Assembly (NCBI GenBank): GCA_963766715.1
Contig: CAVYBH010000016.1
Span: 1 to 55,147, forward strand
Length of the DNA stretch: 55,147 nt
DNA from: an uncultured delta proteobacterium
GTDB lineage: Bacteria > Myxococcota > Myxococcia > Myxococcales > Anaeromyxobacteraceae
Reading direction: 5' to 3'
Positions 31,501 to 34,500 of this stretch are shown here, one piece after another; position 1 is the stretch's first letter, and every line of letters starts with the position of its first letter. Position numbers: made by a program.

Positions 31501-34500
31501 TCGCGGGGCTCACGGCGCCGTTCCTCCTGAAGGCCGATTCGCCCTCCGGCGCCGTGTACGGCGTCGCGGCCCAGGCCGGCGCGACCAGCGTCAACTCGCT
31601 CACGACCGTCGTGGTCGCAGCCTCCTCGAAGAGCGACGACGCCGAGAGGTCCTGGTCGGACCGCGAGTCGCGCACCTCCGACGACATCGAGCGGGTCCTC
31701 AAGAGCCTCCAGACGGTGCTGAAGCCCCTCTTCGACCTCTACGGGGTCACGCGAATCGACGACGACGACGCGAATCGTCCGCGCACTCCTCCAGGACGTG
31801 AGCTTCGTGGTGAAGGGGCGCATGGTCACGGTGACGAACAAGGCCACCGGGGCGATCATCTTCACCGCCCCGCTGAGGCGACCTCGCCTCCGGTACCTTC
31901 AACCCGGGCGAACATGCCCGCGGGGCCGGTGGGATCACCGCCGTCCAGCCTGCACCTACGCCTACTCGGACTGGGGCACCTGCCAGTCCGACGGGACCCA
32001 GACGCGCACCGTCACCTCCGCGACGCCCGCCGGCTGCACGGGCACGCCCGTCCTGTCGCAGGCGTGCGCGTACACGCCTCCGGCTCCCGCGGCGTGCCAG
32101 TACACGTACACCTCCTGGAGCACCTGCCAGCCCGACGGCACCCAGAGCCGCACCGTCGTCACGTCCGGCCCGGCTGGATGCACGGGCACGCCCGTCCTCT
32201 CGCAGACCTGCACCTACGTGCCGCCCCCGCCGACCTGCACCTCGTTCAACTACTCGGCCTGGGGCACCTGCCAGCCGAACAACACCCAGACGCGCACCGT
32301 GACGACCTCGTCCCCGACCGGCTGCACGGGCGGAACGCCGGTGGTCTCGCAGTCCTGCACCTACGTGCCGCCGGTGACGACCTGCACCTCGTTCAGCTAC
32401 TCGGCCTGGGGCACCTGCCAGCCGAACAACACCCAGACGCGCACCGTGACGAGCTCGTCCCCGGCCGGTTGCACGGGCGGAACGCCGGTGGTCTCGCAGG
32501 CCTGCACCTACGTGCCGCCGGTGACGACCTGCACCTCGTTCAACTACTCGGCCTGGGGCACCTGCCAGCCGAACAACACCCAGACGCGCACCGTGACGAG
32601 CTCGTCCCCGGCCGGTTGCACGGGCGGAACGCCGGTGGTCTCGCAGTCCTGCACCTACGTGCCGCCGGTGACGACCTGCACCTCGTTCAACTACTCGGCC
32701 TGGGGCACCTGCCAGCCGAACAACACCCAGACGCGCACCGTGACGAGCTCGTCCCCGGCCGGCTGCACGGGCGGAACGCCGGTGGTCACGCAGGCCTGCA
32801 CCTACGTGCCGCCGGTGACGACGTGCTCGTCGTTCACCTACTCGGCCTGGGGCGCCTGCCAGCCGAACAGCACGCAGACGCGCACCGTGTTGACCTCGTC
32901 CCCGGCTGGCTGCACGGGCGGGACGCCGGTCGTGTCCCAGTCCTGCACGTACACGGCGCCTTGCACGCTCGCGACGGCGACCCCGTCGTGCAGCACCTGC
33001 CACGGATCGGGATCGAACCCCTATCCGTCCTCGCACACGGGCAGGCCGCTCACCTGCGCGAACTGCCACGGCCCCGTCAACAACGGCACGGGGACTCCAT
33101 CGGTGGGGATGACCGCGAACCAGCACCGGCGGAGCGTGCGTCCTCGCCTACCCGTTCGGCGGCACGCACAACAACAACACGGTCAACCGCGGCGCAGCCC
33201 AGTAGCCCAGTAGTTCCTCGCCCCCGAGGCGAGGCGTGAGACGTCACGAGGGGACATCCTGCCCGCGGAACGGGCCAGGGTGTCCCCTCTCTTCTTGGAC
33301 GCGTCCCGGCTCACCGGACGGGCCGAGGCGGCCGCCTGCGCGCCATCCGCTCGACCGTCCCGGGTGGGTGAGCTCGCGCCGCACGTCCCCCGCGATCCAC
33401 CGGGCCTGCGGCGACCCCTGTTCCCGGATCCGCTCCGCCGCGGCGAGCGCGGCCCTGCGAAGCGGCTCGCTCCGCTTGCCCACCTGGCGCAGCGCCCACG
33501 AGACCGCCTTCTTCACGAGGTTTCGCGGGTCGTCGGCGGCCGTCTCGCACGCGGCGAGGCAGGCGGCGAGCTCCGCGTCCGGCGCCTCGCGGTCGTGGAC
33601 GGCGCGCACCGCGAGCAGGACCAGGCCGGCACGGCGCGTGAACTCCGCGCGCCGGCGTGGCCAGGCAGCGGCGAGCGTCCGGACGGCCGGGCTGTCCCGG
33701 AGCAGGTTGTTGCAGAGCTGGTCGCAGACGTCCCAGGAGTCGACGTCCCGGATCCAGCGCTCCGCCTGGGCGGCCGTGACGAGCGCCGGCTCGCCGACGA
33801 GCGTGGCGAGGATCCGGGCCTCGTGGACCCCGCTCCGCCAGAGGCGGCCGGCGATCGCGTGCCGGAGTGGAGGATCCCGGTGGGCCCGGCGAAGCTCCTT
33901 CGCGAGCGCGCGGATGCGAGGAACGGTGCACGCCGAGGGCCCGGCCCGTCGAGATGCCGTAGCGGGCCATCCCGGCGACGTTGGCGGGCCTGCCCTCGGC
34001 CCGCAAGGTGGCCAGCGCGTCGTCGGCGATCCGGTCCGGCGAGCGGAGTTCGACCCGGCCCGCCCCCATCACCCGCCCGTCTTGAAGTCGTCCGACCGGA
34101 GCCCGTGCTTCTTCAGGAGCCGGTGCAGGCTCTCCCGCTCCACGCCGGCGCGCGCGGCCGCGCGCGTGACGTTGCCGCGGAACTCGGTGAGGAGGGCCAC
34201 GAGGTACTCGCGCGACACCTTGTCCTGCGCCTGCTCCACGACCTCCCGGTAGGGCAGGGACGCCAGCACCGGCCCGGAGGCGTGGCCGGCGGGCGCGGTG
34301 AGCTCCGGAGGCAGGTCACGGGCCTGGATGACGGGACCGGGCGAGATGGCGACGGCCCGCTCGACCGCGTTCTCGAGCTCGCGAACGTTTCCGGGCCAGG
34401 CGTGCGATGCGAGGAGGCGCAGCGCGTCGGGGTCGAAGCCGGAGATGTCGCGACGCATGGCGCGGGCGTGCTTCTCCAGGAGGTGGGCGGCGAGCAGCGG

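Follow-up and report, generated by a model that had tools for sequence, protein, structure and literature searches.

Introduction

A gene of an uncultured Anaeromyxobacteraceae bacterium encodes a row of cysteine-rich repeats followed by two CxxCH haem motifs, which raises the question of what kind of protein carries these repeats and what they do for a cytochrome. The repeats resemble the thrombospondin type 1 repeat (TSR), and TSP1 has been treated as an animal domain that was passed to apicomplexans (PMC3417536). Literature searches for TSRs combined with cytochrome c in bacteria, and for TSRs in bacteria generally or in Patescibacteria, gave nothing relevant. We analysed the gene within a stretch of 55,147 nucleotides (contig CAVYBH010000016.1, hereafter the window). 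The first-pass annotation had described repeats on a protein with two CxxCH motifs, a description that stands as far as it goes but that overlooked what appears to be the protein's nature as a PgcA-family lipoprotein.

Extent and integrity of the gene

The features of the gene are collected in Table 1. An open reading frame at 31798..33213 on the plus strand contains the seven units at residues 52-388 (nt 31951-32961), and the two CxxCH motifs reported after the repeats were found again, at residues 398 and 420. The gene start had been placed at 31807, which is not upheld by alignment across frames to an intact ortholog, P0001 (543 aa, five units). This ortholog aligns from 31277, the start that we adopt, through frames 2, 3, 1, 2, 3 and 1, after which the tail of the gene runs on in frame 2 to a stop codon at 33203-33205. 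The 3′ assembly frameshift noted earlier is present as a single break in the tail, but five further breaks in the 5′ third had gone unreported. GC content at the third codon position is 0.89-0.97 and follows the shifting frames along the gene, indicating that the region is coding sequence and not a chance reading frame. The stretch upstream, at 31100-31260, is AT-rich against the background of the window, which has 72% GC.

Table 1. Features of the PgcA-type cytochrome gene and the basis of each assignment (window coordinates).
Feature	Position	Strand	Basis or remark
Ribosome-binding site AGGAG	31266..31270	+	read off the sequence; 6 nt 5′ of the ATG
Whole gene, predicted PgcA-type lipoprotein cytochrome	31277..33205	+	about 640 residues with six single-base surpluses skipped
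Signal peptide with lipobox (..SLFVLG-C)	31277..31339	+	translation; Cys is residue 21
PgcA-type non-haem ('secretion') domain	31374..31925	+	spread across three frames
Frame break 1, one surplus base (+1)	31373	+	frame-aware alignment to P0001; 1 nt missing at 31376 in a related metagenome contig
Frame break 2 (+1)	31773	+	P0001 alignment; contigs of 3 runs without 1 nt at 31775 or 31777
Frame break 3 (+1)	31876	+	P0001 alignment; contigs without 1 nt at 31876 or 31878
Frame break 4 (+1)	31910	+	P0001 alignment; contigs of all 4 runs without 1 nt at 31908 or 31911
Frame break 5 (+1)	31947	+	P0001 alignment; contigs of 3 runs without 1 nt at 31947
TSR-like unit 1	31951..32094	+	48 aa, 4 Cys; alone matches PTN_MK_C at E 0.0034
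TSR-like unit 2	32095..32235	+	47 aa; unit alignment
TSR-like unit 3	32236..32382	+	49 aa; modelled by AF2, pLDDT 88.8, three strands
TSR-like unit 4	32383..32529	+	unit alignment, DNA identity
TSR-like unit 5	32530..32676	+	unit alignment, DNA identity
TSR-like unit 6	32677..32823	+	unit alignment, DNA identity
TSR-like unit 7	32824..32961	+	46 aa; unit alignment
Putative two-haem tail, about 80 residues	32962..33202	+	CxxCH at 32989-33003 and 33055-33069
Frame break 6 (+1), in the tail	33114 (approximate)	+	three-frame translation against ortholog tails; no row for this site in the contig comparison

The interrupted frame could mean that the locus is a true pseudogene, in which the six breaks are real mutations and the full-length protein is never made in the organism. 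Six breaks within 1.9 kb are indeed denser than those in the neighbouring genes, and when sequencing runs were searched for the sequence of the window, no run contained more than 0.15 of the sampled words, so that the exact sequence was recovered in none of them. Every break is, however, a single surplus base, and once these are skipped no in-frame stop is left, while each segment keeps both the codon-position GC and about 80% identity to the intact ortholog. In addition, no fewer than four further genes within 25 kb show splits of this kind (ferrochelatase, a Zn-dehydrogenase, CusA, a kinase/regulator pair), and one base is absent at five of the six break sites in related contigs from four metagenome runs, these contigs coming from relatives and not from reads of the source organism. 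With this evidence a pseudogene is very improbable, and the six breaks are most likely assembly errors in a gene that is intact in the organism. Separately, related contigs also contain joints that skip 150-879 bases, for which a difference in copy number and mis-assembly of repeats are both possible; we conclude nothing from them.

The N-terminal region and its relation to PgcA

The N-terminal part of the protein, restored across the frame breaks, carries two features that were overlooked earlier because the breaks hid the upstream portion of the gene. The first is a lipobox at residues 15-21 (..SLFVLGC), a lipoprotein signal of the kind that marks the PgcA group; by a PROSITE-like rule, a lipobox is also present in 76 of the 87 relatives with complete N-termini. 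The second is a non-haem domain that matches chain A of PDB entry 9i0d, both for the window piece 31374-31772 (9i0d_A, E 4.9e-11) and for residues 31-214 of P0001 (E 1.7e-18). Structural comparison agrees, as the model of P0001 matches 9i0d, described as the 'non-heme domain from PgcA', with a Foldseek E-value of 5e-13 and a TM score of 0.73. This domain is present in 105 of the 120 best relatives; in 104 of these 105 proteins all units lie C-terminal to it, and CxxCH motifs occur in 103. A literature search for 9I0D and for the non-haem domain of PgcA found no paper.

The relationship to PgcA provides a functional context for the repeats. PgcA (GSU1761, Geobacter sulfurreducens) is the type member of the 'microbial heme-tethered redox strings' (Fernandes 2023, PMC10570954; Nash 2024, PMC11520253). 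Its lipobox is LAGC (PMC10570954), its (PT)x-tethered domains have a reach of 180 A, and its domain III, with His/His ligation, is the mineral reductase (PMC11520253). The protein encoded in the window shares with PgcA the lipobox, a homologous N-terminal non-haem domain (9i0d/9i0e for PgcA), a C-terminal haem part that is kept apart from the non-haem domain, and sequence rich in Pro and Thr, which here lies at the junctions of the units. In contrast to PgcA, whose three OmcF-like one-haem domains sit on unstructured (PT)x, it has a single two-haem, c3/c7-like tail and seven folded four-Cys spacers, as far as the predictions go. No description of this variant with a two-haem head was found in the literature searched; the models of PgcA homologs in supplementary Fig. 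S1 of PMC10570954, which perhaps include folded linkers, lay outside that search.

Sequence and predicted fold of the units

Alignment of the seven units reproduces the earlier account of seven repeats with four Cys each and 22 invariant columns, at 83% mean column identity, with lengths of 46-49 residues in place of the 47-49 first given. The repeat period of 147 found by TRF likewise recurs, but the array now measures 5.7 copies at 91% matches (32114-32952) where 5.1 copies at 94% had been recorded. At the DNA level, units 3-6 are 96.6-98.6% identical to one another. Each unit contains a single basic residue (Lys or Arg), which is the conserved Arg, together with 0-2 acidic residues, Ser and Thr make up 35-39% of the units, and the junctions between units are rich in Pro and Thr (..TYVPPVTT).

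The TSR superfamily is made up of Pfam TSP_1 (PF00090) and its sister families. No TSP_1-type family matched the protein at E<=1, eight relatives and two single units at E<=10, or a 48-member alignment of relatives (A2) at E<=0.01. The only recurring non-cytochrome Pfam family was PTN_MK_C, the pleiotrophin/midkine C-terminal domain (PF01091), which matches 21 of 48 relatives at E<=0.01 and lies above its cut-off in, for example, P0078 (46.7 bits), P0074 (46.2 bits) and P0130 (43.6 bits). On the window's protein it scores 21.2 bits against a cut-off of 25.3, and NCBIfam gave no meaningful match to the protein and likewise holds no model, so the claim that the repeat lacks a Pfam family of its own still stands. 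Searched against the sequences of the PDB, a profile of the unit found pleiotrophin alone (E 0.44).

Structural comparisons point to the TSR more directly. AlphaFold2 modelled a single unit, unit 3, as three strands with a pLDDT of 88.8 (87 in the earlier run), and Foldseek matched this model to 31 PDB chains at E<=10 (earlier 34), nearly all of them TSR-bearing, with none at E<=1e-3 and every match at E>=2.1. VIA-align compared the same model with 48,161 chains and returned 16 with Z>=2, in the range of 2.0-3.3. All 13 of the 13 entries listed bear TSRs, led by THSD7A (Z 3.3) and MIC2 (3.1) and followed by properdin, BAI1, Sema5A, F-spondin, TSP-1, TRAP and CCN3. In addition, the tandem array in the model of P0001 matches properdin (1w0r_A) in Foldseek at E 1.6e-5 over 379 columns. 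Block pLDDT values in the array are 49-91. These results uphold the TSR-like fold proposed at first, and the prediction that the units fold as a TSR is now better supported than before, at absolute scores that are low.

As in the TSRs of TSP-1, properdin, THSD7A, TRAP, MIC2 and F-spondin, the unit is predicted to be elongated and three-stranded and is used in tandem arrays. Its sequence contains a putative aromatic ladder in reduced form, [F/Y]-x-Y-x-x-W, with Q-x-R-x-V on the strand that follows; Y5, W8 and R19 in these motifs are invariant. The unit differs from the TSR in having four Cys instead of six (three disulfides), a single Trp and a single Arg where the TSR has ladders of three (WxxWxxW, RxRxR) and 46-49 instead of about 55-60 residues, and in being a bacterial module on redox and other surface proteins that no TSP_1-type profile matches. 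With PTN_MK_C, the sole Pfam model to recognise it, the unit shares four Cys, and with pleiotrophin the motif C-x-[YF]-x-[FY]-x-A-W-G-x-C...T-R-T. Apart from the score under the cut-off, the differences from that domain are the absence of basic heparin-binding clusters and the occurrence in tandem arrays, whereas PTN_MK_C is a single domain.

The putative two-haem tail

The units are followed by a tail that is common to 23 proteins and represents the rarer variant of the head. All 15 tails compared have in common the two CxxCH motifs, two additional His, one Met and a pair of additional Cys, every one of them invariant. The tail thus has two CxxCH motifs, two other invariant His and one Met in about 80 residues, where c3/c7 cytochromes have about 30-40 residues for each haem and a distal His ligand. 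Profile scores stay below the cut-offs (Cytochrom_c3_2, 14.5 against 25; Paired_CXXCH_1, 11.6 against 20.6), none of the Pfam c3/c7-type models searched (PF14537, PF14522, PF09699) exceeds its cut-off on the tail, and the class I families Cytochrome_CBB3 and Cytochrom_C do not match the window's protein in Pfam. The tail is modelled poorly (block pLDDT 34-59). In the ESM Atlas the nearest clusters are all c3/c7 cytochromes, with a best score of 0.89 that we take as a lead only. The genome also has three PF01578 matches for cytochrome-c assembly.

Among PDB sequences the tail matches a DnaJ zinc finger best (E 0.035), and this, together with the lack of a cytochrome Pfam model above cut-off, would fit a tail that is no cytochrome at all, in which CxxC(H)G motifs bind zinc or iron in a small metal-binding knot. 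We consider such a knot the least credible of the alternatives raised here, as each CxxC is followed by His in all 15 tails, which have two other invariant His besides, most relatives carry a class I cytochrome c at the same position (Cytochrome_CBB3 in 23 of 48, best E 1.2e-25), and the nearest language-model clusters, as a lead, are all of the c3/c7 type.

Distribution of the unit and variation in its number

The unit had been reported in more than 1000 proteins, and our search agrees, with 1093 proteins at E<=1e-8 (1017 earlier). A search with a profile of the unit alone found it in 1,763 representative clusters. CxxCH is present in 39 and absent in 111 of the 150 best of these representatives. 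Fusions to cytochromes, described earlier as frequent, do exist, but their share had been inflated by the earlier query and its length window. In surface-type proteins the unit occurs together with cohesin, fn3, beta-helix, LamG, PKD, Cyt-b5, malectin and peptidoglycan-binding domains (from a Pfam scan of 52 of the 111 representatives that lack haem motifs), and to judge from these sequences it is a promiscuous extracellular module. Its bearers belong to Myxococcota, Nitrospirota, Bdellovibrionota and Patescibacteria-type bacteria, being common in the last, and even within the family it is patchy, with 39 of the 81 genomes searched containing it. The same genome encodes a second unit-bearing lipoprotein, which is MtrC/MtrF-like and multihaem and has two units.

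The number of units varies from 3 to 10 among the 105 relatives with the N-terminal domain, and from 0 to 5 among the 23 proteins that share both the tail and this domain. One of these 23, P0262, has no unit and instead carries three fn3 stretches where the units would stand. Such variation, and the replacement by fn3, fits a role as a spacer. Alignments A2 and A3 contain 44 and 46, respectively, of the 120 relatives listed, which were selected by hand so as to be diverse or to have the same architecture.

The units could instead be binding modules, making the protein an adhesin-cytochrome that uses its Ser/Thr-rich units to grip minerals, exopolysaccharide or cells. TSRs have roles in adhesion in animals and apicomplexans, the closest structures are adhesion and recognition domains (TRAP, MIC2, properdin, THSD7A), the Ser and Thr content supplies many hydroxyl groups, and the unit stands beside cohesin, LamG, malectin, PKD and peptidoglycan-binding domains in other surface proteins; a Thr-rich (PT)x was, moreover, once proposed to bind oxides (PMC10570954). 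Mineral binding by (PT)x in PgcA was, however, tested and not supported (PMC11520253). The unit, for its part, has no basic patch, and 0-10 copies in otherwise equal proteins, with fn3 as a replacement, do not suit a binding function. We therefore regard a binding array as unlikely and favour the spacer.

Genomic surroundings

No electron-transfer operon was found around the gene, and when seven proteins encoded nearby were compared by tblastn with 77 related loci (+/-3 kb), the only hits were to sigma-54 regulators, at three loci. Over the window, Rfam at the gathering score gave one tRNA and no cyclic-dinucleotide riboswitch, and a permissive riboswitch search of 30850-31350 gave nothing at E<=5. 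A sigma-54 promoter was considered because a kinase/sigma-54 regulator lies nearby, and was rejected: the sigma-54 consensus, with up to two mismatches, has nine matches, which is chance level, and none lies upstream of the gene. A promoter scan yielded no promoter-like site, and a terminator scan yielded one terminator-like site, on the minus strand and at chance level.

Discussion

Our analysis suggests, with a probability that we put at roughly 0.6, that the gene product is a PgcA-family lipoprotein c-type cytochrome with a folded stalk that acts as a tethered electron carrier. We infer its localisation, haem binding, disulfides and stalk stiffness from the comparisons above. By analogy with PgcA, the protein would be exported, lipidated and moved to the cell surface, and, again like PgcA, it may be cleaved within the N-terminal domain. 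Each module would be locked by two disulfides, and the modules together would form a protease-resistant stalk with a length of about 20-30 nm, as estimated from typical TSR dimensions. The tail would bind two low-potential haems, probably with His/His ligation, and would serve as the redox head, taking electrons from outer-membrane or surface cytochromes and passing them to minerals or neighbouring carriers. Because the protein has only one redox module, the intramolecular haem-to-haem relay of PgcA would be impossible, and other proteins would have to supply the head with electrons. The mechanism would be tethered diffusion, as put forward for PgcA, except that folded spacers would replace the floppy (PT)x linkers, and the array is probably a stalk that sets the distance from the cell at which electrons are handed over. 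The number of units would set the reach and would change by tandem duplication.

A stalk of the estimated 20-30 nm would also be about as long as the periplasm is wide, and the protein could instead be a periplasmic one, lipid-anchored, whose array spans the gap while its head carries electrons back and forth between cytochromes of the inner and the outer membrane. Haem attachment, like the formation of disulfides, is periplasmic, and no secretion genes adjoin the gene, which would suit such an arrangement. The unit is, however, common in Patescibacteria-type proteins and in cohesin and peptidoglycan-binding surface proteins, and the other protein with units in this genome is MtrC/MtrF-like, an outer-surface type of cytochrome. 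We consider a periplasmic shuttle improbable, and prefer the surface-tethered carrier.

A broader reading, which we offer tentatively and think may well be wrong, is that the four-Cys module is an old bacterial branch of the TSR/pleiotrophin-midkine fold that serves as a disulfide-locked spacer of fixed length step, with 0-10 modules setting the reach of PgcA-type cytochromes and duplication tuning it at present. If so, the 97-99% DNA identity of units 3-6 would reflect a recent tandem duplication and a reach that is being tuned now, and the TSR would not be an animal invention.

To our knowledge, no cytochrome other than PgcA has been studied as an example of electron movement by tethered diffusion, and the linkers of PgcA are floppy. 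The protein described here would represent a widespread branch in which rigid, countable, disulfide-bonded modules take the place of such linkers. If this proposal is true, the distance over which extracellular electron transfer works would be determined by genes and easily varied, which would make the idea of tethered diffusion directly testable. A bacterial module with the predicted fold of the animal thrombospondin repeat and no family model is also a gap in the domain databases, and such a module would bear on the origin of the thrombospondin adhesion fold.

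Sequence and extent of the repeat-bearing gene

The protein encoded by g04183 carries seven tandem units of 46-49 residues, each with four cysteines, followed by two CxxCH motifs, an arrangement that the first-pass annotation had described from this locus with units of 47-49 residues; its Pfam, relative, AF2 and Foldseek figures were also closely reproduced. Alignment of the translated units gives a mean column identity of 83% and 22 invariant columns (numbered by the first unit: C1, Y5, W8, C11, Q12, T16, Q17, R19, T20, V21, P26, G28, C29, T30, G31, T32, P33, V34, Q37, C39, Y41 and P44). 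At the DNA level, TRF reports a period of 147 bp with 5.7 copies and 91% matches, and units 3-6 share 96.6-98.6% identity. The open reading frame that contains the array is coding, because its third-codon-position GC reaches 0.96-0.97. Short, Pro/Thr-rich junctions link the units, with 'TYVPPVTT' occurring 86 times among the relatives.

The gene itself is larger than the earlier extent, which began at 31807. Three-frame translation and comparison with P0001, an intact ortholog of 543 residues with 80% identity, place the true start at an ATG with an upstream AGGAG site, and the N-terminus is a lipoprotein signal (..SLFVLG-C). Along the gene the comparison with P0001 gives reading frames 2, 3, 1, 2, 3 and 1, and read-through of the surplus bases yields a product of ~640 residues. 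The rival reading of these breaks is a pseudogene. Assembly errors are likely, because all six breaks are +1 and no stop remains once they are skipped, because related organisms' contigs omit one base at the first five sites, and because several genes within 25 kb show splits or fusions of the same kind. The contigs come from four independent metagenome runs and are one base short at 31376, 31775/31777, 31876/31878, 31908/31911 and 31947; the rows shown cover these five sites and not the sixth. We found no sequencing run with this exact sequence, which holds the error reading at likely. Among the neighbours, ferrochelatase and a Zn-dehydrogenase are each in two pieces, CusA is in three, and a histidine kinase reads into a sigma-54 response regulator, which points to frequent single-base errors in the assembly.

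Coordinates of the features discussed (window positions unless a contig is named)
Feature	Position	Strand	Basis or remark
Gene start (ATG)	31277		three-frame translation, P0001
Single surplus bases 1-5	near 31373, 31773, 31876, 31910, 31947	+	frame-aware comparison with P0001
Surplus base 6	near 33114	+	tail then in frame 2 to stop at 33203-33205
Frame-3 piece	31374-31772		PgcA-type domain match
Open reading frame with array	31798..33213	+	
Seven-unit array	31951-32961	+	residues 52-388
CxxCH motifs			residues 398 and 420
Split or fused neighbours	24677-25706, 29746-31105, 34072-37197, 40278-44257		
Cupredoxin-like gene, then CusC/CusB/CusA-type operon	36951-44257		divergent from kinase/sigma-54 pair
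16-mer TGGCCCCCCCGGTGCT	18432, 18705, 18978 (18432-18993)		spacing exactly 273 bases
Long ORF at 16-mer	16156-19806	-	alternative to next row
Long ORF at 16-mer	18235-19839	+	alternative to previous row
tRNA gene	53272-53344	-	sole Rfam match in window at gathering score
792-residue lipoprotein gene	C14:65157-67535	-	other unit-bearing gene

Kinship with PgcA

The frame-3 piece upstream of the array matches PDB 9i0d_A at E 4.9e-11, and residues 31-214 of P0001 match the same chain at E 1.7e-18. Likewise, the AF2 model of P0001 matches 9i0d (E 5e-13) and 9i0e (E 5.8e-11) with TM 0.73-0.75, both entries being titled 'non-heme domain from PgcA'. Of the 120 best relatives, the PgcA-type N-terminal domain is found in 105 and CxxCH in 107; the domain lies N-terminal to all units in 104 of those 105, which carry 3-10 units each (mode 5), and a lipobox is found in 76 of the 87 relatives with complete N-termini. 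These matches, together with the conserved architecture, assign the protein to the PgcA family through its N-terminal half. No second copy of the domain was found in the genome (84.6% complete).

According to PMC10570954, the Geobacter sulfurreducens protein PgcA is a lipoprotein cytochrome located outside the cell (lipobox LAGC), whose N-terminal 'secretion' domain is clipped during maturation and whose three one-haem domains are linked by (PT)x. PMC11520253 puts these domains up to 180 A apart and describes the His/His domain III as iron-oxide reducing. In contrast, the protein of the window departs from the part of the PgcA definition that specifies several cytochrome domains on unstructured linkers. 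Our literature search found no account of PgcA relatives with folded spacers or of bacterial TSR-like modules, and the PgcA-homolog models in the supplement of PMC10570954 might bear on this.

Of the 120 relatives, 15 conserve the last ~80 residues, and a dedicated search found this tail in 23 proteins. Invariant across the 15 tails are C-TLA, two CxxCH with a His between them, G-M, C-x-L-x-YP, T-H and a terminal N-x-GAA. Tentatively, this pattern fits two covalent haems, with His (or Met) as the distal ligand, and a further disulfide, and at ~40 residues per haem it is akin to c3/c7-type cytochromes. Every match of the tail to Pfam c3, c7 and Paired_CXXCH was under cut-off, an Atlas search gave 0.89, a lead only, and model confidence over the tail is 34-59. 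In the genome, three matches to cytochrome-c assembly score above cut-off.

Fold of the repeat unit

The AF2 model of unit 3 (input alignment of 48 rows) has three strands and a pLDDT of 88.8. Foldseek against the PDB returned 31 matches at E<=10, none at <=1e-3, nearly all from TSR-bearing proteins (C6/C8/C9, Unc5A/D, pleiotrophin, midkine, MIC2 and THSD7A). VIA-align, which is independent of Foldseek, found just 16 of 48,161 representative chains at Z>=2. The 13 entries listed are THSD7A (Z 3.3), MIC2, POFUT2, two of properdin, BAI1 TSR3, Sema5A TSR3-4, C5b8, F-spondin TSR4, TSP-1 TSRs, TRAP, CCN3 TSP1 and proMIC2. In the POFUT2 entry the aligned part is chain residues 1003-1051, which we take to be a fused TSR substrate. 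The Z scores are low, in keeping with a length of 49 residues, and for this predicted model specificity is complete among the 13 entries listed. The earlier caveat that structural E-values are weak because the domain is tiny is answered by the tandem array in the full P0001 model, for which properdin (1w0r_A, modelled from solution scattering) is a match with E 1.6e-5 across 379 columns; other chains of properdin and THSD7A follow at E 0.05-0.13.

At the sequence level, the unit is recognised by PTN_MK_C only. This Pfam model scores 21.2 bits against the protein of the window (cut-off 25.3) and 46.7 bits in the relative P0078, reaches E<=0.01 in 21 of 48 relatives, and is precomputed (PF01091) on 15 of the 120 listed. 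TSP_1-type models gave zero matches to any sequence scanned with Pfam, namely the protein of the window and its relatives. A unit profile run against PDB sequences found pleiotrophin only (E 0.44), with the common motif C-x-[YF]-x-[FY]-x-A-W-G-x-C...T-R-T. From the structural matches and PTN_MK_C recognition, the module works like the TSR/pleiotrophin-midkine fold and probably shares descent with it. Compared with the TSR family proper, it is a reduced form with four cysteines, one Trp and one Arg, and falls outside the sequence-profile and six-cysteine definitions. It also differs from pleiotrophin and midkine in having no basic patches, because each unit has one basic residue (the conserved Arg), 0-2 acidic residues and 35-39% Ser/Thr.

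Distribution and genomic context

A unit-only profile run against 1.84 billion representatives yielded 1,763 proteins at E<=1e-3 (1,058 at <=1e-10 and 287 at <=1e-30). The claim that the repeat is often fused to cytochromes is inflated by the query behind it and its length window; in the unit-only search, only 39 of the best 150 proteins have CxxCH and 23 the PgcA N-terminal domain. The unit is an extracellular module of general use. A Pfam scan of 52 of the 111 haem-less proteins in that set found fn3 in seven, Big_13 in six, Cohesin and Laminin_G_3 in five each, Cyt-b5 and Beta-helix/NosD in four each, no family in 14, and also PKD, SH3, peptidoglycan-binding, glycoside hydrolase, FG-GAP and pilin-like domains. 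Two giant haem-less representatives, P0121 (1275 aa) and P0122 (3821 aa), carry 13-14 units; the N-terminus of P0122 resembles a type IV secretion pilin, and this protein also has LVIVD repeats.

Pattern matches in species-representative genomes were confirmed relatives in 128 of 136 cases. The 77 loci retained include Anaeromyxobacteraceae, other Myxococcota, Polyangiaceae, Bdellovibrionales, Nitrospirota (Thermodesulfovibrionales, Dissulfurispiraceae) and Patescibacteria-type bacteria, with Anaeromyxobacter terrae SG22 and A. soli SG29 as cultured carriers. Saccharibacteria, Yonathbacteria and Staskawiczbacteria genomes are also among the unit-bearing loci. Within the family of the window, 39 of the 81 genomes searched have the unit (24 of 54 high-quality ones; 8 of 11 genera), and it is therefore an accessory feature there. 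The nearest named relatives, together with the GC of 72%, suggest an Anaeromyxobacteraceae origin for the window.

The gene looks monocistronic, preceded by the Zn-dehydrogenase and convergent with a gene for DNA-alkylation repair. Downstream of it are the CusCBA efflux operon, a cupredoxin gene and a kinase/sigma-54 regulator pair. No riboswitch was found at the gene in the Rfam search of the window, nor a sigma-54 motif upstream of it, nor conserved neighbours. The kinase/sigma-54 pair may provide copper-responsive control of the efflux operon. Elsewhere in the window (GC 72%), the spacing of the 16-mer suggests a 273-bp (91-codon) tandem repeat in a long ORF.

A proposed role for the array as a stalk

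The PgcA-type N-terminal domain is present in every one of the 23 tail-bearing proteins, and 22 have 1-5 units, so that the seven of the window exceed any of them. The remaining protein, P0262 (731 aa, metagenome), has the same N-terminal domain and two-haem tail with three fibronectin type III stretches where units sit, and is a natural spacer swap. Because their number varies, they are replaceable and they sit between anchor-side and redox domains, we interpret the units as stalk elements. Rival readings are an adhesive function of the units, a periplasmic span and, for the tail, a non-haem metal site. Just one further gene of the genome bears units. Its product is a lipoprotein in which two units accompany a carboxypeptidase-regulatory-like domain and a multihaem cytochrome domain of MtrC/MtrF type.

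We propose the following path. The protein would be exported by Sec, lipidated at Cys21, and furnished in the periplasm with haems and ~15 disulfides, before it reaches the cell surface in the manner of PgcA and is perhaps clipped inside the N-terminal domain. There the array would form a protease-resistant stalk. Scaled from TSR dimensions, a module presumably spans ~3-4.5 nm and seven roughly 20-30 nm, compared with the 18 nm measured in PgcA. The two-haem head would pivot at both the anchor and the Pro-rich junctions, taking electrons from outer-membrane or surface cytochromes and passing them to solids or neighbouring heads. Unlike PgcA, the protein has no internal haem-domain relay, and loading of the head would therefore have to be intermolecular. 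The PgcA family and the TSR fold are the known elements here; what is particular is the uninterrupted seven-unit stalk with its rare two-haem head.
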